DNA of 64,000 bases from a virus (IMGVR_UViG_3300033121_000719:1-64000); one strand, 5' to 3'. Shown: positions 33,272-42,934, counted from the stretch's first letter. Numbers and translations: made by a program. The notes: generated by a model from the letters alone, not told the origin.

Positions 33272-36200
33272 ATGAATATGGCTGTTGATATGTCAAGGCG
33301 TTATCACGTCAAGGTTCTTTTAGAAGGTGATGTAAAAGAATTAGAAGAAAGTTTAAAAAATAGACCACCCATAAAATATAAAGCTACACTTGGGGCTGAT
33401 ATAGATACAGATGCCGCTGACTACAAAATACAAATGTGGACTAATAGATTGACCAAAATGACTTCTGGCAAACTGTTGAATATTGGTCAATTTGATTTGA
33501 TGGATAGAAATAGGATAACGCAACAAGTAAATGAATTACAAAATTTAATTGGTGGGTTTGGAGTTAAGGGTGGCCCATCCGTAAAGGCAGTTGAACTTGC
33601 TTTTAGCAACTTAAGTGCGGCAATATCTGTTACTGATAAAAATATGAAGGCACATAAAAAGTCAAGTGATGATCTAACTAAATCACAAAAACAACAAGAA
33701 GCCGCCACGCAAACCTTAAATCATCAGGTTAATACCTATGAAGACCAAATAAAAAGAATGTCCGCAAGACAGCCAGCAATTTTCAATACTGAAGAAGTAA
33801 AAAAAGCTGTTGAAGAGTTTAGGCAACTTGCCACTGTGGCAAAAGCAACTGGAAACTATGAAAACTTAAAGAAAAATTTAGATAATTTATCAGAATCTTT
33901 TAATCACATAAAAACTAAGGCAACTGAAGCTGGCGGAGCTGTTTCTAAGCAAAACATGACTTGGGCTAACTTTGGCGAAATGATAAAAATAGCAATTAAA
34001 AAACTATCAGCGTGGGCTATTGCGACTGAAATTCTTTTTGAGGTAAACAAACAGTTTAAACAAACAGTAAAGTATGTGACTGATTTAAATACTGAAATGA
34101 CAAAGATTTTAATGGTTACTGATTTGACAAAAAATCAAGCAAAAGAATTAGTTGAGAGCTACAAAGAGTTAGGTCGTGAGCTTGGTGTTACTACATTAGA
34201 GGTGGCTAAAGGCGCAATTGAATGGCAAAGGCAGGGCAAAAGCATAAGCGAAACAAAAGAACTTTTGAGAGACAGTGTTATGCTTGCTTCAATTGCAAAT
34301 ATGGATCAAGCAAAATCAACTGAATATCTTACCTCAATTATCAATGGTTATCAGTTGAGTTTGGATGAAGTAAAACCTGTTTTAGACGGGTTGATTGCAC
34401 TTGACAATAATTATGCAACCAGCGTTGAGGAAATTGCTCAGGCTATGCAGAGAGTTTCAAATATTGCAAATCAAGCTGGAGTTCCTTTAAAAAACTTAGC
34501 GGCTCAAATTACAGTTATATCTTCTGTTACAAGAAAATCAGCAGAATCTATTGGTGAATCATTAAAAACCATTTACTCAAGAATGCAAAATGTGAAACTT
34601 GGGAAATCTCTTGATGAAGAAGGTCAACGAATTAGTGATGTTGAAACTGTTCTCAGTAGACTTGGTGTAAAACTAAGAGATGATGTTACTGGTGAATTTA
34701 GAAACATGAATGATGTAATGGAAGAAACCAGAAAAATCTATAAGAAACTTATGGATGAAGGACAGACCACAAGAGCAAACCAATTAGTTACGGTTTTTGC
34801 TGGTATCAGACAGGCTGAAAACTTAAAAGCATTTTGGGGTAATCCTGATATTTATGAAGAAGCTCTTAATGTTTATGATGAAAACCTTGGAATTATGGAA
34901 GAAAAATACAAGGCCAAAGCTGAAAGTATTGAAGCATATAATAATAGAATAAGTGCTGGCTGGGAAAATACTAAGGCCGCATTTTTTCCAGAAGAAAGCT
35001 ATCTTCGTTTATTGAAATTTACTGATGGATTGCTTGCATTTACTCAGGCTTGGGGAAAACTTAATACAGAAATAGATAACAGTAATATTTTATTGCGCTT
35101 ATTTTCAAATATAGGCGGCCCTATATTAAGAGGCATAGGAACTGGAGCTGTAACTGCATTTCAACAAACACCAACTGATGAAATGACTCAGTATGCAAAC
35201 AGTGAAATAGGTAAAAGAAAAGAAAGAATTGAGAGAATTAAGCGCGGAGAAGAAGACTTGCTTGGCGCAACATCTCAACAATATAGAGATGAACAAATAG
35301 CTCAGCTAGAAGCTGAAATTGAAGAAATAAAAAAGACCATTCCAACAGAATATCAATATAAAGATTATGAAGATACTAGAGAAATGGAACGCCTTAAGGC
35401 CGCAAGCGGAATTGGTGATTCTTCAAAATCAAAACCTGTTATGCCAGATGAATGGTTTGACTTAGTTTCTAAAATGGAAGCTTTGACTGAAGTTGATAAT
35501 AAACTGTTAAAATTAAAAGCAGATTATGAAGAAACTGGAAAAATGACTTTTGACCAGCTTACTCAGTTGCAAGATGTTCTTCCAGATTCATATCTTCAAT
35601 TTGTAAAAGCTGAAGGCGACCAACTTATTTTGAATACTGATGCATTAAAAGAATATATGATAACTAAAGCTCATAATACGGTTGTAACAGCGGACGATAA
35701 CAATGCCTCAGAAGAACAATTAAACATTTTGATAGCCTACGAAAACCAACTTAGATCAGGAGTTATAGGTGCTGTAGAAGAAGCCGCTAAACAACAAAAG
35801 GCATACGACCATATCCTTCAACTTACGATCAATATGCTTAAGCAGTCAAAAGAAGATGAAAAGAAGGCACTTCAAGAAGAACTCAATAGATATAAAAAGA
35901 TTATTGATAATAAAAAGAAATTGCTTGATCTCCAATTAAAAGAACTTCAATATCAAAATAAGATTGAAGATAAGAATAAATCAATTTCAAAAATACAAAA
36001 TGAGTTGCTTGAATTACAAGTTGATAATAGCGAAGAAGCGGTCGCAAAAAGACTTGAACTTGAAGAAGAACTTGAAAAGCAAAATGAAGAATTGTCAGAG
36101 ATGCAAAATGAGCATAGCATTGAGATGCAGAAAGAAGCTCTTGACGAAGAATTAAGAAACTTTAGTCAAGCAATTGATGATAAAATAAGTGAAATTGATA

Positions 36201-36844
36201 ATTATCTCAACCATGAGGGTGAAATTACTCAACAAGCTATAGCTATGATTGGCAATATGTCTTATAATTTATACCAACAGTTGATAGACTATAATTATAA
36301 ATACGGTGATGGTAAGAAAGAAACAATTGATCTTGAGTGGAAGCAAGTTAGAGCTTTACAGGCAGTAAAAAACGCCGCTTATGAAGCTGCCGCCGCAATT
36401 AGTTCAGTTGATATGTGGAGTTATGAAAACGCACCTTGGGATTGGACTGGTAAACCAGAGACTGATCCATACAGTTATGAAAACGCACCTTGGGATTGGA
36501 CTGGTGAACCAATTGGATACCATCATGATGGAATAAAATCTGGAAAAGTTGGTAGAACACCAAATTTAAGACAAGATGAAGTATTAGAGATTCTTACTAG
36601 AGATGAAACTGTTTTGAAACCATCAGATATTAATAACTTGGTAAGTAAAATTCCAAGTTTAGCTGGCGGTAGAATTGGTTCTGGTGTTTCTTTTGATAAC
36701 TTAATAAATCTAACAATTCATGGAAATGTAACTGATAAAAATATTGCTGATATAAAAACAATAGTGAATGAAGCTGTTGCTAAACTGAATAAATCTCTTA
36801 CTGATAGGGGATATTCACCAAACGCTACTGTTTATTCAATTTAA
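33272..36844 (+). CDS. Tail tape measure protein
   Basis: TP901-type TMP core (WQRQG, IGESLKTIYSR, FAGIRQ), long coiled coils, C-terminal YHHDG/DE.L motif. Confidence 0.9.
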   Translation: MNMAVDMSRRYHVKVLLEGDVKELEESLKNRPPIKYKATLGADIDTDAADYKIQMWTNRLTKMTSGKLLNIGQFDLMDRNRITQQVNELQNLIGGFGVKGGPSVKAVELAFSNLSAAISVTDKNMKAHKKSSDDLTKSQKQQEAATQTLNHQVNTYEDQIKRMSARQPAIFNTEEVKKAVEEFRQLATVAKATGNYENLKKNLDNLSESFNHIKTKATEAGGAVSKQNMTWANFGEMIKIAIKKLSAWAIATEILFEVNKQFKQTVKYVTDLNTEMTKILMVTDLTKNQAKELVESYKELGRELGVTTLEVAKGAIEWQRQGKSISETKELLRDSVMLASIANMDQAKSTEYLTSIINGYQLSLDEVKPVLDGLIALDNNYATSVEEIAQAMQRVSNIANQAGVPLKNLAAQITVISSVTRKSAESIGESLKTIYSRMQNVKLGKSLDEEGQRISDVETVLSRLGVKLRDDVTGEFRNMNDVMEETRKIYKKLMDEGQTTRANQLVTVFAGIRQAENLKAFWGNPDIYEEALNVYDENLGIMEEKYKAKAESIEAYNNRISAGWENTKAAFFPEESYLRLLKFTDGLLAFTQAWGKLNTEIDNSNILLRLFSNIGGPILRGIGTGAVTAFQQTPTDEMTQYANSEIGKRKERIERIKRGEEDLLGATSQQYRDEQIAQLEAEIEEIKKTIPTEYQYKDYEDTREMERLKAASGIGDSSKSKPVMPDEWFDLVSKMEALTEVDNKLLKLKADYEETGKMTFDQLTQLQDVLPDSYLQFVKAEGDQLILNTDALKEYMITKAHNTVVTADDNNASEEQLNILIAYENQLRSGVIGAVEEAAKQQKAYDHILQLTINMLKQSKEDEKKALQEELNRYKKIIDNKKKLLDLQLKELQYQNKIEDKNKSISKIQNELLELQVDNSEEAVAKRLELEEELEKQNEELSEMQNEHSIEMQKEALDEELRNFSQAIDDKISEIDNYLNHEGEITQQAIAMIGNMSYNLYQQLIDYNYKYGDGKKETIDLEWKQVRALQAVKNAAYEAAAAISSVDMWSYENAPWDWTGKPETDPYSYENAPWDWTGEPIGYHHDGIKSGKVGRTPNLRQDEVLEILTRDETVLKPSDINNLVSKIPSLAGGRIGSGVSFDNLINLTIHGNVTDKNIADIKTIVNEAVAKLNKSLTDRGYSPNATVYSI
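36419..36505 (+). repeat. Perfect 33-bp direct repeat (SYENAPWDWTG x2, 54-nt period) inside TMP
   Basis: AGTTATGAAAACGCACCTTGGGATTGGACTGGT at 36419 and 36473. Confidence 0.9.
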
Positions 36845-36908: not shown

Positions 36909-37709
36909 TTGGCCGCTAATTTTAAAGGATTAGAGTTTATTTTTGACAACAAAAGTTCAGACTTTTATGGATTGAAGTTATATAATTCAGATACTGGAAG
37001 TTCTGAAGGTGATGCTGGTTCAAAAGTTGAAATTCTTGAAAAAACAATTTTGAGAAAACCAAAAACAATTCTTTTTGGTACGAGTCAAAATACTCAACTT
37101 GAGTTTGACCTAATTATAGGAAGCACATCAGAAGTTGATGCTCAAACTAGAAGTGCGATTTCAAGATGGTTACTTGGTAGAAGTTCATACCTTCCACTAA
37201 GCATTGTCCAAGAGGATATGTTGTCAACAATTTATTATGTCATTTTTACAGAAATGAAACCAGTATTTTATGGGAATTTAAATTATGCTTTTGTTGCTCA
37301 TGCCAAATGTAATGCTCCTTGGGCTTATATGAGTCCAAAAACAAGCACATATAACTATAGTGGAAGTAGCATAGTTTCAACAACTATAAATTACAATAAT
37401 CTTTCAGATAATAATGATTACACTGATACAATAGTTTCTTTTACAATGAATGGTATTGGAAACTATTTTACAATTACGAATGTAACTGATAATAATAGAG
37501 TTTTTTCATTTACTAATATTTTACCATACGAGACAATAACTGTAAACGGGAATACTCTTGAGGTATATTCTTCAACTGGATTAAAAAGAGTCGATTCTTT
37601 CAATAAAGGTTTTGTCAGATTTGTGCCTGGAATAAATGTCTTGCAAATACAAGGTGGAATTAATCAATTAAGTTTTACCACTGAATTTGCAGTAAAAGCT
37701 GGAGGTTAA
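36909..37709 (+). CDS. Distal tail protein (Dit)
   Basis: FIFDNKSSDFYG, CNAPWAY, FVPGIN; position after TMP. Confidence 0.8.
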   Translation: MAANFKGLEFIFDNKSSDFYGLKLYNSDTGSSEGDAGSKVEILEKTILRKPKTILFGTSQNTQLEFDLIIGSTSEVDAQTRSAISRWLLGRSSYLPLSIVQEDMLSTIYYVIFTEMKPVFYGNLNYAFVAHAKCNAPWAYMSPKTSTYNYSGSSIVSTTINYNNLSDNNDYTDTIVSFTMNGIGNYFTITNVTDNNRVFSFTNILPYETITVNGNTLEVYSSTGLKRVDSFNKGFVRFVPGINVLQIQGGINQLSFTTEFAVKAGG

Positions 37710-37711
37710 CG

Positions 37712-39628
37712 ATGAATCAAGGTTTTGATTATTTTAATAGATACCAGATTCCAACCTTTACTCTTTGCAATCCTGATAAAACTCAATTATATATTTTGGG
37801 TGATATTTATGATAGAAAGCTAACTTTAAAATACAACGCAATATCAGAATTGTCGTTTACTGCAAAATCTGGTACTGCATATTATGATCTTTTGAATTAT
37901 AGAAGATTAATACATATTGAAGAATTTGGATACTTTATGATTACTGGAATTGAAAATGAATCTGATGGTATCCAAGACATCAAGAAAATAACAGCCCAAT
38001 CAATAGATGTTGAATTATATTACAGAAAATTGTCAAACTTTAAGGGAACTTATAAGTTTTATGACTATTTTAATCCATCTACAACTTTGATTGGGACATT
38101 ACTTGCATATTTACCAAATTGGAGTGTTGGAGTTATTGATGGTTCTCTTATACCATTGTATAGAACTTTTAATGAAACTGATACAACTATCTATGCTTTT
38201 CTAATCAACAAAGTTGAACAAGCGTATAAATGTGTTTTTGTTTTTGATTATGAAAACTATACAATTTCAGCGTATTCTCCAAGTACCGCTACGAAAAATA
38301 CTGATATTATATTGTCTCATAAGAACTTGATTGAAGATATAAAAATCAAAACATCAACAGATCAGTTGGTTACAGCGTTAAATGTGTTTGGAAAAGGCGA
38401 TCTTGATATTAGAACAGTCAATCCTCTTGGCACTGCAACTTTATATGATTTTACTTTTTATAAAAATGCTGAGTGGATGAGTGGTTCATTAATTAGTAAA
38501 ATAACCGCATGGGAACAACTGGTTGACACTTATCAACCAACATATGCAACAAAACTTACTGAATTAAAAAACTTATATGAAGAATTGACAATATTAAACT
38601 CTGAATATGCTGATTTAAAAGCTGACTATAACTCTCTTGATGGCGTAAGAAAAGCTAGAATAGAACAGGGAAATTCAGACCTGTCTGGAATTACAGCCCA
38701 ATGTGAAGCCAAACAAGCAGAGATGGATTCAAAACAAGGACAGATAGATAATAAAAACACACAAATAACAGCCAAAAAAGCTGAACTTGTAGCGATAAAT
38801 GACCTACTTAAATTTGAAAATAATTTTACCGCTTCTGAATTGATTGAATTAAACAACTTTATTATAGTTTCTACATATCAAAACGAAAATTTTGTGCAGA
38901 CTGACACTATGACAAATGCTGAAATACAAGATATGGCTCAACAATTATATGACCAAGCCGCTGATGTTTTGAGTAGAATGGCTCAAGCTAGATATACATT
39001 TGAACTAAATGCGGTAAATTTTATTTTTGCCATAGAGTATGCAAGATCAACGATACAACTTGAACTTGGAAGTGTAATAAATCTTGAAGTTAGTGATGAT
39101 GTTTGGGCTTATCCAATCCTTCTTGAAATATCATTGAACTATGAAGACCCAAATGATTTTGAATTAACATTTGGAAATAGATTGAGACTAGATAATGGCC
39201 CAATGACGTTTGCTGATTTGCTTGGTTCAACAGTAAATAATAACCTTAAACTAGCTACTAATGATGTAAAATGGAATAGCTTTGATGATAACTATAAAGA
39301 TGGAGTTTCAGCATTATTGACTGAGGCTTTTGATGCTTCAAAAAATGCTATTATTTCAGCGACTAACCAAGAAATTAGAATAAATCAGAATGGTTTATTG
39401 GGAAGAAAATATATTGGCGTAGTTGCTGGAAGTCCAATTTACGATCCTGAACAATTGTGGATGATTAATAATCAAATTGTTTTCACAGACGATGCTTTCA
39501 ATAGTGTGAAATCAGCTATTGGTAAAATATCAACTTCAAGTGGATCGTTCTACGGCGTAATAGGTGAAAAAATTTATGGGAAAAATATAGTGAATTGGAA
39601 CTGTTATGATAATAACGAAATTTGTTGA
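37712..39628 (+). CDS. Tail hub/Tal-type (prophage endopeptidase-like) protein, N-terminal part of an apparently split gene
   Basis: TLCNP, IRTVNPLG, coiled coil, LTFGN; ends shortly after YGVIGEKIYGK. Confidence 0.8.
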   Translation: MNQGFDYFNRYQIPTFTLCNPDKTQLYILGDIYDRKLTLKYNAISELSFTAKSGTAYYDLLNYRRLIHIEEFGYFMITGIENESDGIQDIKKITAQSIDVELYYRKLSNFKGTYKFYDYFNPSTTLIGTLLAYLPNWSVGVIDGSLIPLYRTFNETDTTIYAFLINKVEQAYKCVFVFDYENYTISAYSPSTATKNTDIILSHKNLIEDIKIKTSTDQLVTALNVFGKGDLDIRTVNPLGTATLYDFTFYKNAEWMSGSLISKITAWEQLVDTYQPTYATKLTELKNLYEELTILNSEYADLKADYNSLDGVRKARIEQGNSDLSGITAQCEAKQAEMDSKQGQIDNKNTQITAKKAELVAINDLLKFENNFTASELIELNNFIIVSTYQNENFVQTDTMTNAEIQDMAQQLYDQAADVLSRMAQARYTFELNAVNFIFAIEYARSTIQLELGSVINLEVSDDVWAYPILLEISLNYEDPNDFELTFGNRLRLDNGPMTFADLLGSTVNNNLKLATNDVKWNSFDDNYKDGVSALLTEAFDASKNAIISATNQEIRINQNGLLGRKYIGVVAGSPIYDPEQLWMINNQIVFTDDAFNSVKSAIGKISTSSGSFYGVIGEKIYGKNIVNWNCYDNNEIC

Positions 39629-40844
39629 TGTAAAAATAGTTAGAACGAATCATAATCACTATAAAAATCTTGGTTATGACGCTAAATATAAAAGCGTCAT
39701 AACCATTCCAATAGAACATTTAACGTTGGGCAGTCACGTTGAGATTGAAGTTAAGTGCGATTATTGCGGTCTTATTATAAAAAAAATGTACAGGCAAATT
39801 ATAAAAGAAAGAAAAGATTCTGTTATAAAAAAAGATTGTTGTAAAAATTGCGCCAATAAAAAAAGAACAGAATCTAATCTTTTATTATATTATGTGGAGA
39901 ATACATTTCAAAGAGACGACATAAAACAAAAGATAAAAACAATATTGATAGAAAGATACGGATACGACAGCATCTCAAAAACAGAAGAAAATAAAAAGAA
40001 AATATCAGAAATATGGAAAAACAAACCTAAAAAAGAAAAAGATTTAATTGTATGTAAAATGATGGAAACACAAATAAAAAGATATGGAATGTGGTATACA
40101 AAGACTGAAGACTATAAAGAAAAAAAAAGAAAAACTTGTATAGAAAAATATGGCACAGATGATTTTTCAAGATCAGTAATTGTTAGAGACAAGTATAAAA
40201 ATACTATCAAAGAAAGATATGATAATGTTGATAATTATTTTGCAACTAAACAGTTTAAATCATACATAAAACAATATTGGATGCTTCTATATGGAGTAGA
40301 TCATTATTCAAAAACTGATAATTTTCATAAAAAAATTTGTTCATATTGGGATAATGTCACTGAAGATATACTAAAATATAAAAATGAAAAAACATCAAAA
40401 ACCGTAAAAGAAAGATATGGGGTTGATTATGTTTTTCAATTAGAATCTGTTAGAGAATCAATAAAGAACACTTCAAGAAATGGTTCTAAGCCTCAATATA
40501 AACTATATTCTATATTGAAAGAAATATTTCCAGAATATATGATTTCTTACAATTTTATTGATGCGCCATATACACTAGATATTTTATTATTTTTTGAAAA
40601 CATCAAGATAGACATTGAGTATGATTGTTCTTATTGGCACACACCAGAGTTGGACAAAAAAAGGGACAATATATTAATTGAAAGAGGGTATAAAATCTTA
40701 AGAATAAAATCAGGGAGAAATATTCCTGAACACGAAGATTTGAAATCTTCAATAAATATATTATTAAAAACTGAAGAAAAATACCTAGAATTATTTTTAA
40801 TAGATTGGAATGAAACTATATATAAAAAAAAGAGAGGTAAATGA
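39606..40844 (+). CDS. Putative homing endonuclease (CDYC N-terminus, KYG/RYG repeats, C-terminal Vsr/DUF559-like PD-(D/E)XK domain)
   Basis: SKPQ...LDI...IEYDCSYWH...DKKRD...GYKILRI. Confidence 0.8.
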   Translation: MIITKFVDVKIVRTNHNHYKNLGYDAKYKSVITIPIEHLTLGSHVEIEVKCDYCGLIIKKMYRQIIKERKDSVIKKDCCKNCANKKRTESNLLLYYVENTFQRDDIKQKIKTILIERYGYDSISKTEENKKKISEIWKNKPKKEKDLIVCKMMETQIKRYGMWYTKTEDYKEKKRKTCIEKYGTDDFSRSVIVRDKYKNTIKERYDNVDNYFATKQFKSYIKQYWMLLYGVDHYSKTDNFHKKICSYWDNVTEDILKYKNEKTSKTVKERYGVDYVFQLESVRESIKNTSRNGSKPQYKLYSILKEIFPEYMISYNFIDAPYTLDILLFFENIKIDIEYDCSYWHTPELDKKRDNILIERGYKILRIKSGRNIPEHEDLKSSINILLKTEEKYLELFLIDWNETIYKKKRGK

Positions 40845-42934
40845 TGAGTAATTGTTTAATTTTACAAACTAAAACAAAAGTATTTTTTGGATCAGATACA
40901 GCTCTCACAACAAAAATAAAAGATGAATATATTAGAGTGAGTAAAAATCAAGAAAAAATATATACATTTAAAAATGGGATTATGTTTTGTTCTGGAAATA
41001 ATTTTTATGTTGATAAAATAGTTTCATATTTTTCTAATGTTAAATGGTTGGATCAAAATAATATATCACTATTTATAAAAGAATTAAATCCTAAAAAAAA
41101 TAAGGAAGTCTTTAATATAGAGATTATTGTAGCGATAATTGAAAAAAATAGTGTATCTGTTTTTCAGATATCTGAATACAATAACTATGACGTTGTAAAA
41201 CTATCAGTTAATGATAACGAAACTAAAGTGTTTTCTGCTGGAATTGAAACCAAAAAATGCGTTGATTTTGCTGTGCATGAATTAAATTTAAAAAACAATG
41301 TATTTGACGTGTATAGAAATGTTTTTAATAAAATAAAATGTGAAAAAATAGGCGGAAACTTACAAGTATACGAAGTATCAAATTCAATAATAAAGCATAT
41401 TGACGAGCCAATTAAAGATGATATTATTCCAAGGATTTCTGTGTATTCAGTAATTGGCGAGGCACTAATTGGCAAAATTTTAGCTGGTAATCAACTTACT
41501 ATTACAAATGATTCCAACACGTTCTATGTTGATGGTTCTGGTGTTTCGTTAACTACATCAAATCTTCAAGGAACTGGAAGAGTTACAATAAATGGACTGA
41601 ATGGAATTAGACTTCAAAAAATAGTTCCTGCTTCTGGAAGTTCTTCTGGAAGTGTAATAAATACATTTTGGGTTGATAGTCAAGGAAACTTACAAATAAC
41701 TGGTAATTTAGTTGCCGCAACTGGAACTTTCAACGGAAGTTTATCAACTGAATTGGGAAGTATTGGTGGGTGGATTATCACTAAAGATGGATTGATGGAT
41801 AATTTAGGTAACTATATCTATAGTGACGGTAGAGTTCATCTTGGTATGCTTGATATAAATGGGTCTACTGCAACTTTCAATGGGTATGTATATGCCGATA
41901 ACTTGGTTGGTCTTATTACTGAAGCTAAGTTGGCTGATGGTAGTGTTACAAATGCTAAAATTAAAAATTTGAGCGCAGACAAGATAAATGCTGGAACGCT
42001 TAGAGCTATCAACATTGAAGGATGCACAATAAGATGGGGTTCAAATAATTCTTATGCTATAATGCGTGATGTTGGAACTGGAGCACTAGAAATATCTTCA
42101 AACAATGTTATACAAATGGTAAATTATAATGGACAAAATGCCAGCGGACTTATTTTAAAGTCAGATGATGCAATTTTTGGCGGAAACTCAAAGACAACTA
42201 TTGGAACTTTATCTTCAAGCACAATAAATCTCAACGGTTCTCTTATGACAAGAGGACAATATGCCCAAACGCAAACCGTATATGTTGGTAATAAAAGAAT
42301 GGTGTTTGTAAATGGATTATTTATGGGTGCTACTGGATGGAATGGCACAACATATCCTCCAACTGAAAGTGGAACTCCAATAACTACAGAACCTAACTTT
42401 ACTTGGACTGAGGGTGGACTAGAGTTTATTGCTGTTGATATAAGTAATGATTGGCAAACGCCTGGCGATTTTTCTAGGAGATTGGATTTATCTTATTCTA
42501 AAATACCAGCGGATTGCTATTATGTTGGTTTAGCTATTTTTAATGCTTCTTCGTATACAACCTTATGGCCTAATCATTTTCAATATGTTCCAAATGGAAA
42601 TTCTTATGATGTTCACACAAATTATAACAATGTAACGCTTGGATTTTGGATTAATAATGATTCTTGGACAGGATTTACAGGATTTTCAATAAGTGGAGAT
42701 GGTAGTGGCTATGAAAGTCCTGCTGCTGCTGTTTATGATTTTTGTAGCAAGAAATCACAAAGTAGTCCTCTTAATATTGGTGATATTTACCTTTCTGGAA
42801 CTATGGAACGTTTTTATGGTGGAGTATATAATTATTTTGAATGGAATAATGATACTATAGATTATAGTGATGGAAGCTGGAATATAGATAATAAAAAAAA
42901 ATGGATGATTTGTGTTAAAAATCCAAACCCATAA
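40844..42934 (+). CDS. Ntn-hydrolase (proteasome-beta/HslV-like) domain fused to the C-terminal part of the tail hub/spike protein
   Basis: After Met removal S1, D17, EKI Lys, CSG, FSAG, IGG; from about aa 200 YSVIGEALIGKILAGNQL and beta-rich spike repeats (LSADKINAG). Confidence 0.72.
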   Translation: MSNCLILQTKTKVFFGSDTALTTKIKDEYIRVSKNQEKIYTFKNGIMFCSGNNFYVDKIVSYFSNVKWLDQNNISLFIKELNPKKNKEVFNIEIIVAIIEKNSVSVFQISEYNNYDVVKLSVNDNETKVFSAGIETKKCVDFAVHELNLKNNVFDVYRNVFNKIKCEKIGGNLQVYEVSNSIIKHIDEPIKDDIIPRISVYSVIGEALIGKILAGNQLTITNDSNTFYVDGSGVSLTTSNLQGTGRVTINGLNGIRLQKIVPASGSSSGSVINTFWVDSQGNLQITGNLVAATGTFNGSLSTELGSIGGWIITKDGLMDNLGNYIYSDGRVHLGMLDINGSTATFNGYVYADNLVGLITEAKLADGSVTNAKIKNLSADKINAGTLRAINIEGCTIRWGSNNSYAIMRDVGTGALEISSNNVIQMVNYNGQNASGLILKSDDAIFGGNSKTTIGTLSSSTINLNGSLMTRGQYAQTQTVYVGNKRMVFVNGLFMGATGWNGTTYPPTESGTPITTEPNFTWTEGGLEFIAVDISNDWQTPGDFSRRLDLSYSKIPADCYYVGLAIFNASSYTTLWPNHFQYVPNGNSYDVHTNYNNVTLGFWINNDSWTGFTGFSISGDGSGYESPAAAVYDFCSKKSQSSPLNIGDIYLSGTMERFYGGVYNYFEWNNDTIDYSDGSWNIDNKKKWMICVKNPNP

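Follow-up and report, generated by a model that had tools for sequence, protein, structure and literature searches.

The tail hub (Tal-like) gene of the phage genome IMGVR_UViG_3300033121_000719 (132.8 kb, with terminal repeats), of which the first 64,000 nucleotides (nt) were analysed here (hereafter the window), is interrupted by a selfish cassette of about 1.9 kb, inserted exactly behind the Gly of the conserved motif YG|[LVI][VI][AG][DE]x[ILV]VG[RK]. The entire inserted cassette (39557..41449, on the plus strand like all other features given below; 1893 bp, low in G+C, with boundaries taken from split versus unsplit relatives) has four parts: a motif-like coding stretch with a tail and a stop codon, an endonuclease gene, a 200-aa domain with the modelled fold of a proteasome beta-type N-terminal nucleophile (Ntn) hydrolase, and a short linker. 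We consider it likely that this mobile endonuclease cassette brings its own protein-level repair enzyme. That the repair would consist in a covalent re-joining of the two hub halves, as suggested by analogy with the archaeal ligase Connectase, is the reading that we favour, but in our view an evenly balanced proposition.

The interrupted gene and its insert occupy three open reading frames (ORFs), and those features that a first-pass annotation had read from the nucleotide sequence were all found in place, namely a hub ORF that stops 14 codons past YGVIGEKIYGK, an ORF that starts at 40844 behind GAGAGG, and a resumption of tail sequence at YSVIGEALIGK. The first ORF (hub-N; 37712-39628, 638 aa) matches positions 10-632 of the minor tail protein phrog_6211 (1168 positions), as well as Prophage_tail and YOMG_N. 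Its host part (residues 1-615, 37712..39556, ending in ...SFYG) shares 40-52% identity with uninterrupted hubs and is followed by a cassette-encoded C-terminal tail (39557..39628) that consists of VIGEKIYGK, 14 further residues and the stop codon. The upstream motif copy, YGVIGEKIYGK (39551..39583), aligns with the single motif of the uninterrupted hubs. A free-standing, putative homing endonuclease of 412 aa, with DUF7487 repeats and a Vsr-like/DUF559-type nuclease end, is encoded by the second ORF (39606..40844), which overlaps the last 23 nt of the hub ORF. The third ORF (40844-42934, 696 aa) opens with the Ntn domain (40844..41440; Met, Ser1, Asp17, Lys37 and Gly50) and the last cassette codons, V-Y-S (41441..41449). 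The downstream motif copy YSVIGEALIGK (41444..41476), read directly from the sequence, is of host type from the V at 41450 onwards, and the ORF reads as tail fibre downstream of it; this fibre or spike part of the host hub gene (hub-C, 41450..42934) continues ...ILAGNQLTITNDSNTF... like the uninterrupted hubs and matches phrog_19445 Tal.

Two ATGs, at 40841 and 40844, precede the third ORF, and the TGA stop codon of the endonuclease gene overlaps this start region, an overlap that is kept in other loci. The ATG at 40844 is the better start because the ribosome-binding site GAGAGG (40832..40837) sits 6 nt upstream of it, and all relatives also start with Met-Ser. Of the adjacent ATGs at 40841-40846, only the second gives Met-Ser, and hence a removable Met and a free Ser1; with a Met-Met-Ser start, the usual action of methionine aminopeptidase would leave the Ser unexposed. 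The G+C content is 22-27% over 39600-41400 versus 30-36% in both flanks, and the dip covers the endonuclease and the Ntn domain together. Public DNA contigs from the run that is the probable source, which confirm the assembly only, match 39075-42400 identically, and they include neither a joint nor a cassette-free allele. One contig of 4.8 kb spans the region, and short pieces identical to it occur in a wastewater sequencing run.

An uninterrupted hub is the norm among relatives. Of the 120 homologues that match the 638-aa protein best, at 40-52% identity, about 105 are single genes of 870-1060 aa that contain the motif once, in the form YG[LIV][VI][AG][DE]x[ILV]VG[RNK], leading directly to ...AGNxLxIxN...; a phage from a faecal metagenome, for instance, has an uninterrupted hub of 1056 aa. 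Another 12 of the 120 are about 626-679 aa long and stop 11-23 residues past the YG. The possibility that such hubs are ordinarily encoded by two genes, which would have undone the first interpretation of the locus, was therefore not borne out. On a tree of 122 hub N-parts (FastTree), the split state requires 12-13 changes, and several split genes have close unsplit sisters (branch lengths of, e.g., 0.05-0.13). Given this scatter over the hub tree beside unsplit sisters, the split is a derived condition with many gains or losses. When the closely related L020, which is split, is set against the unsplit P0271, the common sequence ends in ...TAYG and restarts with LVADVIVGRLL..., which places the insert exactly after the YG. 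The junction had earlier been assumed to fall inside VIGE, with a swap of the two copies at that motif, and this comparison of split and unsplit genes moves it to the position after YG.

The domain that opens the third ORF is hardly recognizable by sequence comparison. Its first 200 residues had no match in Pfam (E-values up to 1), PHROG or NCBIfam, and the family profile had none among the PDB sequences. We ascribe the missing match to the Proteasome profile to a family too diverged for HMMER; a 2021 survey of proteasome homologues also relied on structure-guided methods (PMC8665760). The AlphaFold2 model, based on a 91-sequence alignment, has a pLDDT of 96.3, and its best Foldseek matches are all 20S proteasome beta subunits (E about 3e-9, TM 0.6-0.7). 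Comparison with VIA-align gave Z-scores of 17-20 for beta subunits (root-mean-square deviation 2.6-3.1 across about 175 residues); the values for Anbu, HslV and BPH are 17.3, 15.1 and 13.9, and those for Connectase 10.4-10.7. In these alignments, the Ser (residue 2 of the model) coincides with the first residue of the mature chains of beta subunits, HslV, Anbu, BPH and Connectase. S1, D17, K37 and G50 are invariant in 74 sequences, and R30, G132 and G169-G170 are nearly so. In the model, D17 closes strand 2, K37 immediately precedes a strand, and G50 closes the strand that leads to helix 1, as in beta subunits, with K37 shifted from Lys33 by a 4-residue insertion; their equivalence to the catalytic set Asp17, Lys33 and Gly47 (PMC8665760) is drawn from spacing and secondary structure rather than from a superposition of coordinates. 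The proteasome-beta-type Ntn fold that had been proposed at the outset is thus supported by all three structural methods and by conserved equivalents of Ser1, Asp17, Lys33 and Gly47. The likeness to Connectase that was proposed with it holds for the Ser1 proteasome-type layout but not for structural closeness (Z 10.4-10.7 versus 15-20 for beta subunits, Anbu and HslV), and as modelled the domain is a member of the proteasome family in its own right, not a Connectase orthologue.

An exhaustive HMMER search with the domain returned 242 clusters, 155 of them at E-values up to 1e-10. Among the best 150 of these 242 clusters, the match begins at protein residue 1-5 in all but short fragments, and a fused form with a long N-terminal extension was not found. 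The Ser stands 16 residues ahead of the Asp (in G-x-D-T/S-A) in 132 of 134 members and has the Met as the sole residue before it in 127 of 134, and nearly all members of the family lead straight into the tail motif. A homologue search with the domain in the near length range returned the window's own protein only; related loci were found with a tight 8-row alignment, the domain sequence alone having given no viral-contig match. In its own genome, the domain is present in a single copy, as is the endonuclease.

The two 11-residue copies of the motif in the window have 7 of 11 residues in common but 19 of 33 bases, and five of the seven common residues are encoded by differing codons. That the repeat is above chance follows from the alignment of both copies to the single motif of uninterrupted homologues, together with the recurrence of the doubling, which is present at every cassette-bearing locus examined. 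In 17 distinct split hub-N sequences, the upstream copy has Lys at position 7 in 11, as opposed to 0 in the set of 103 unsplit hubs; most have lost the invariant Gly10, and position 11 (K/R) and position 13 (Ile) are conserved despite varying tail length. Since these conserved positions (K7, K/R11, I13) are its own and absent from uninterrupted hubs, the upstream copy appears to be functional and not a scar. Judged from these alignments, it is a cassette-borne mimic under its own selection, a pattern that a scar would hardly produce but that is readily understood for a recognition peptide. A target-site duplication was considered and rejected on account of the 19/33 base match and the cassette-specific consensus of the upstream copy. 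Selection at the peptide level, as originally put forward in place of such a duplication, is consistent with the differing codons and the separate consensus, but the upstream copy is a cassette-encoded mimic and not, as had been supposed, a second copy of the host motif.

At the downstream junction, 109 of the 150 family members show a host-type motif after the domain, mostly preceded by His-Leu: among these 109, His is at position -2 in 46 and Leu at position -1 in 65, so that the last cassette codons of the family read mostly x-H-L where the window has V-Y-S. The remaining members carry variants of the motif, and their C-terminal parts are fibre-like, some with an endosialidase chaperone domain. 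In three proteins (P0047, P0053 and P0149), the Ntn-fused hub-C ends in a self-cleaving chaperone domain of this kind (Peptidase_S74), from which it follows that a single chain can hold both an N-terminal Ntn enzyme and a C-terminal autoprotease.

For a prediction of the complex, the domain lacking its initiator Met (residues 2-199) was paired with the C-terminal 64 residues of hub-N, the former supplied with an alignment and the latter with one made from split hubs. The score was 0.80 (0.69, 0.80 and 0.85 in the individual runs), compared with 0.00 for the best of three controls; a score of 0.80 is reached by 58 of 80 solved complexes and by 2 of 110 mismatched pairs. The runs agreed in at least 68% of contacts, with a pLDDT of the partner of at least 49. 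On the side of the domain, the confident interface comprises the Ser (residue 2), Lys38, residues 50-54, strand 125-134 and helix 136-153; on the side of hub-N, it comprises residues 611-634, of which 617-626 pair with strand 127-134. G615 of hub-N adjoins the invariant oxyanion-type Gly, and the modelled catalytic centre coincides with the YG|V boundary from the split/unsplit comparison. The model supports binding of the hub-N tail in the Ntn active-site cleft, and it is there that co-folding placed the upstream motif copy, which had been put forward as a substrate of the domain. The primed-side peptide would be the main recognition element, as in Connectase, and the C-terminal tail of hub-N is predicted to mimic the host motif and to act as a recognition or leaving peptide. 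In a monomer model of residues 2-240, which covers the domain, the linker and the second motif, residues 190-216 are coil with a pLDDT of 60-69; there was no sign of cis docking of the second motif copy in this model, which is weak evidence since the fibre is trimeric.

The proposed identity of the middle ORF as a homing-type nuclease agrees with its matches to phrog_12131 and phrog_3339, both "homing endonuclease", and with the Vsr-like and DUF559 domains of its homologues. It also matches DUF7487 (5e-21), and the match of the window's own copy to DUF559 is weak (E 0.012). Most of 384 endonuclease homologues carry DUF559 (PF04480) and the MTES_1575 nuclease domain (PF18741), and several are labelled very-short-patch-repair endonuclease by the Joint Genome Institute; the PDB sequences held no relative. 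At one locus (L019:1217-2255), only the N- and C-terminal ends of the gene survive, within a gap of 400 nt, which fits a homing endonuclease decaying after fixation. In the same locus, the Ntn ORF stops after 209 aa and hub-C goes on in another frame, through either a frameshift or a sequencing error. As to the features of the homing class, patchy presence and one decayed copy fit, as do the PHROG matches; the Ntn and hub trees are roughly congruent, and homing by the cassette endonuclease is putative. Directly upstream of hub-N at L005:1210-2127 (the same DNA as L015), there is a further endonuclease-like ORF, unrelated to the first, whose start is of GIY-YIG type (…GIYQIRN…), and since it adjoins hub-N, the tail module appears to have been invaded twice in this case.

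The arrangement recurs well beyond the window. Psychrobacillus phage Perkons has the same three-gene layout though its hub is only 22-25% identical: hub-N ends in ...DGVIGEKMYCK plus 10 residues, a homologous endonuclease ORF follows, and the third ORF opens with MSSLLVLQ... before the hub resumes at ...LIVGERIYGKII. The same order, with 4-nt stop/start overlaps, is present in at least 12 metagenomic and viral loci. Among 16 loci with upstream sequence, an endonuclease or its remnant lies immediately upstream of the Ntn ORF in 13, and the Ntn domain is kept where the endonuclease is decayed or gone. Three loci have a variant layout (L009:118-5625, L021:1184-4384 and L013:2-3231), in which hub-N has a short tail of cassette type and the next gene, behind a strong AAGGAGG site, encodes a hub-C1 of 302 aa. 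The start codon of hub-C1 falls exactly at motif position 3 (M/V-IGNVIVGRLL), where the unsplit relative P0159 reads YGIVGNVIVGRLL..., and no Ntn domain stands in front of it. The domain is instead fused to a different hub-C2 of 894 aa in a separate downstream gene, and the endonuclease is absent. Such a layout may represent two alternative tip modules for one hub. From another angle, and by analogy, the free N-terminus of C1 would suit a second substrate of a Connectase-like enzyme, and one enzyme could serve two alternative tips.

The locus resembles the fractured genes of Dassa et al. 2009 (PMC2677866), in which a host gene is split by a free-standing, often Vsr-like, endonuclease gene situated between split-intein halves. 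In both cases, the breakage of a phage gene at a conserved site has left two ORFs, a free-standing endonuclease gene of Vsr-like type separates them with stop and start codons that overlap, additional residues encoded by the cassette stand at both broken ends, and repair at the protein level is implied. However, the cassette described here is without an intein, the extra residues being 7-23 in number on the upstream side (23 in the window) and a 200-aa proteasome-fold Ntn domain on the downstream side. The host gene is a virion structural gene rather than one for an enzyme of DNA metabolism, and an N-terminal Ser nucleophile is proposed in place of the N-S/N-O acyl shifts of Hint domains. With inteins and split inteins in general, the cassette shares the state of a selfish element in an essential gene that is spread by a homing endonuclease and is presumably made harmless through protein-level repair, but the Hint fold and intein motifs are absent here, and the enzyme begins a new polypeptide instead of being embedded in frame.

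Connectase, an archaeal proteasome homologue, ligates proteins via an amide-bonded Thr1/Ser1 intermediate, recognizes its motif chiefly by the primed side through induced beta-sheet pairing, and swaps parts of two motif-bearing proteins (PMC7980362). The phage domain is likewise a proteasome homologue of the monomeric type that has an N-terminal Ser/Thr nucleophile and lacks a propeptide, and the locus has two motif copies, of which the upstream one gives its closest modelled contacts with its primed side. It differs in that helices 53-64 and 71-81 occupy the H1/H2 position, whereas Connectase lacks H1/H2, and in that the two-helix insertion of Connectase (between strands 3-4, covering the active site) is missing. 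The Connectase motif is (5)KDPGA(10), whereas KDPGA is absent here and the motif is YG|VIGE...; the phage enzyme is also fused to its presumed substrate and rides on a mobile element, and ligation by it is predicted by analogy only. The phage family is probably identical with "FC4" (Firmicute cluster 4; representative WP_076223917.1) of Fuchs, Alva and Lupas 2021, an assignment made from the described architecture only: FC4 comprises 62 sequences in nr90 from Firmicutes, with C-terminal domains that resemble phage tail proteins (PMC8665760). The entry for FC4 gives no model (the authors doubted theirs), function, endonuclease, split hub or doubled motif (PMC8665760). A literature search for a proteasome-like/endonuclease cassette in tail genes found no description of it, and only the 2021 survey was related.

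The course of events that we infer by analogy with Connectase, catalysis, ligation and homing included, would begin with the motif-mimicking stretch, which would end hub-N with a tail of 7-23 residues and a stop codon, while the Vsr-like homing endonuclease gene would spread the cassette. The Ntn domain, in frame with the downstream half and provided with its own start, would expose Ser1 after removal of the Met, and its cleft would take up the cassette-encoded hub-N tail. Ser1 would then attack the carbonyl of Gly615 in the YG, and the 23-residue tail would leave. The acyl group might be transferred onto the domain's own N-terminal amine, which would yield a single chain hub-N-Ntn-hub-C corresponding to the Connectase-type amide state. 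Alternatively, the same enzyme might also cut before the second motif copy, so that the acyl group would go to the new N-terminus of hub-C, and the product would be a scarless hub of about 1100 aa equal to the uninterrupted sequence. Loss of the small leaving peptide, or virion assembly, could pull the reaction forward. We tentatively propose, at somewhat less than even likelihood, that the cassette would add a third class to the self-healing elements represented by introns and inteins, in which an endonuclease is paired with a single-turnover proteasome-fold transpeptidase that works scarlessly at YG|V with a decoy motif as leaving group, and in which loci of the L009 type could join one hub base to either of two tips, a form of receptor-binding switching at the protein level.

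Several findings weigh against re-joining by a horizontally moving cassette. Hydrolysis, the default chemistry of the fold, fits every computational result equally well, and the domain is structurally nearer to the hydrolytic beta subunits, HslV and Anbu than to Connectase and keeps H1/H2. In L009, L013 and L021, the split hub may work without joining in cis. The Ntn, endonuclease and hub-N trees from ten loci are roughly congruent, with similar segment identities, so that the patchy pattern may owe much to repeated loss rather than to recent horizontal movement of the cassette. The main rival, which we consider unlikely, makes the Ntn domain a site-specific protease that removes the hub-N tail, and perhaps itself from hub-C, after which the halves would associate non-covalently within the tail tip. 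Proteasome-family enzymes usually act by hydrolysis, and the nearest structural matches are hydrolases; L009 and L021 have hub-N and a motif-start hub-C as separate genes with their own strong ribosome-binding site, and the binding at the active site that the complex model supports would be needed by a protease as well. Yet a working non-covalent split leaves no obvious need for trimming or for an enzyme of 200 aa, catalytic residues are intact in more than 240 clusters, the domain persists even without a functioning or any endonuclease, and the primed-side peptide is both the best conserved and the best bound, as in the ligase Connectase. A plain restart codon suffices for a non-covalent split (L009, L021), yet an apparently active enzyme is always kept, which argues that the enzyme acts on the junction. 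The first-pass annotation, which read the locus as a homing element that heals the virion protein by transpeptidation, stands as regards the fold, the endonuclease family, the single-gene norm, the patchy split and the absence of an intron or intein; as regards the chemistry, hydrolytic trimming fits equally.

Tal-type tail proteins often contain cell-wall-degrading domains, and the Ntn domain might on this account be a new kind of tail-associated lysin that acts on the host envelope, with the hub split to provide a free N-terminus and the endonuclease merely lodged in the gap. A free N-terminal nucleophile indeed demands either a new polypeptide start or self-cleavage, and in L009, L013 and L021 the Ntn-bearing gene is apart from hub-N and the endonuclease is absent. 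We nevertheless regard a lysin as quite improbable: an endonuclease or remnant directly upstream in 13/16 loci, the conserved stop/start overlap and a G+C dip that spans both genes all speak against it, and a lysin has no need for a cassette-specific hub-N tail or for its modelled place in the cleft of the domain (controls 0.00). A non-catalytic docking module that clamps the hub-N tail in the manner of a split-protein zipper would agree with the complex model, in which the tail runs along beta strand 127-134 and helix 136-144, but it is very improbable given that the invariant Ser1, Asp17, Lys37 and Gly50 and the strict Ser after the initiator Met are hallmarks of catalysis that a clamp could do without. 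Group I introns with endonuclease genes often interrupt phage genes, and the interruption might likewise be removed as an RNA intron, skipped by ribosomal bypass, or be an artefact of assembly. We give these readings next to no credence: the insert encodes two conserved proteins, the second of them in frame with hub-C and with a conserved Met-Ser start, and the same layout is found in an isolated phage and in many independent metagenomes, with a public 4.8-kb contig that is identical. An Rfam scan of 39000-42000 at E-values up to 10 returned only a chance match of 23 bits on the minus strand, and none of the three ORFs matched an intein or Hint family in Pfam, in agreement with the first-pass annotation, in which neither intein motifs nor a group I core had been seen in the insert.

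If re-joining is true, the cassette would be a new natural protein-splicing system with a fold and chemistry unlike those of inteins, and would bring to at least three the number of independent solutions by which selfish DNA renders its insertion into an essential gene harmless. It would further give a biological role to a Connectase-like reaction, the natural purpose of which is still open (PMC7980362), explain a so far unexplained group of proteasome homologues, and provide a compact pair of sequence-specific ligase and tag for protein engineering. Should the domain do no more than trim, the cassette is still a widespread, undescribed kind of fractured gene in phage tail modules, which annotation pipelines now break into unrelated hypothetical proteins.

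In the window, the hub ORF is preceded by a tape-measure gene (33272-36844) and a gene of the distal-tail type (36909-37709). Within the tape-measure protein, the C-terminal part has the peptide …YENAPWDWTG… twice in tandem (36381-36536). Over 38789-39568, in the 3' part of hub-N, contigs of low depth in the probable source run (2-4 versus 68) diverge from the window by about 9-13%, and a related phage strain coexists in the same sample.

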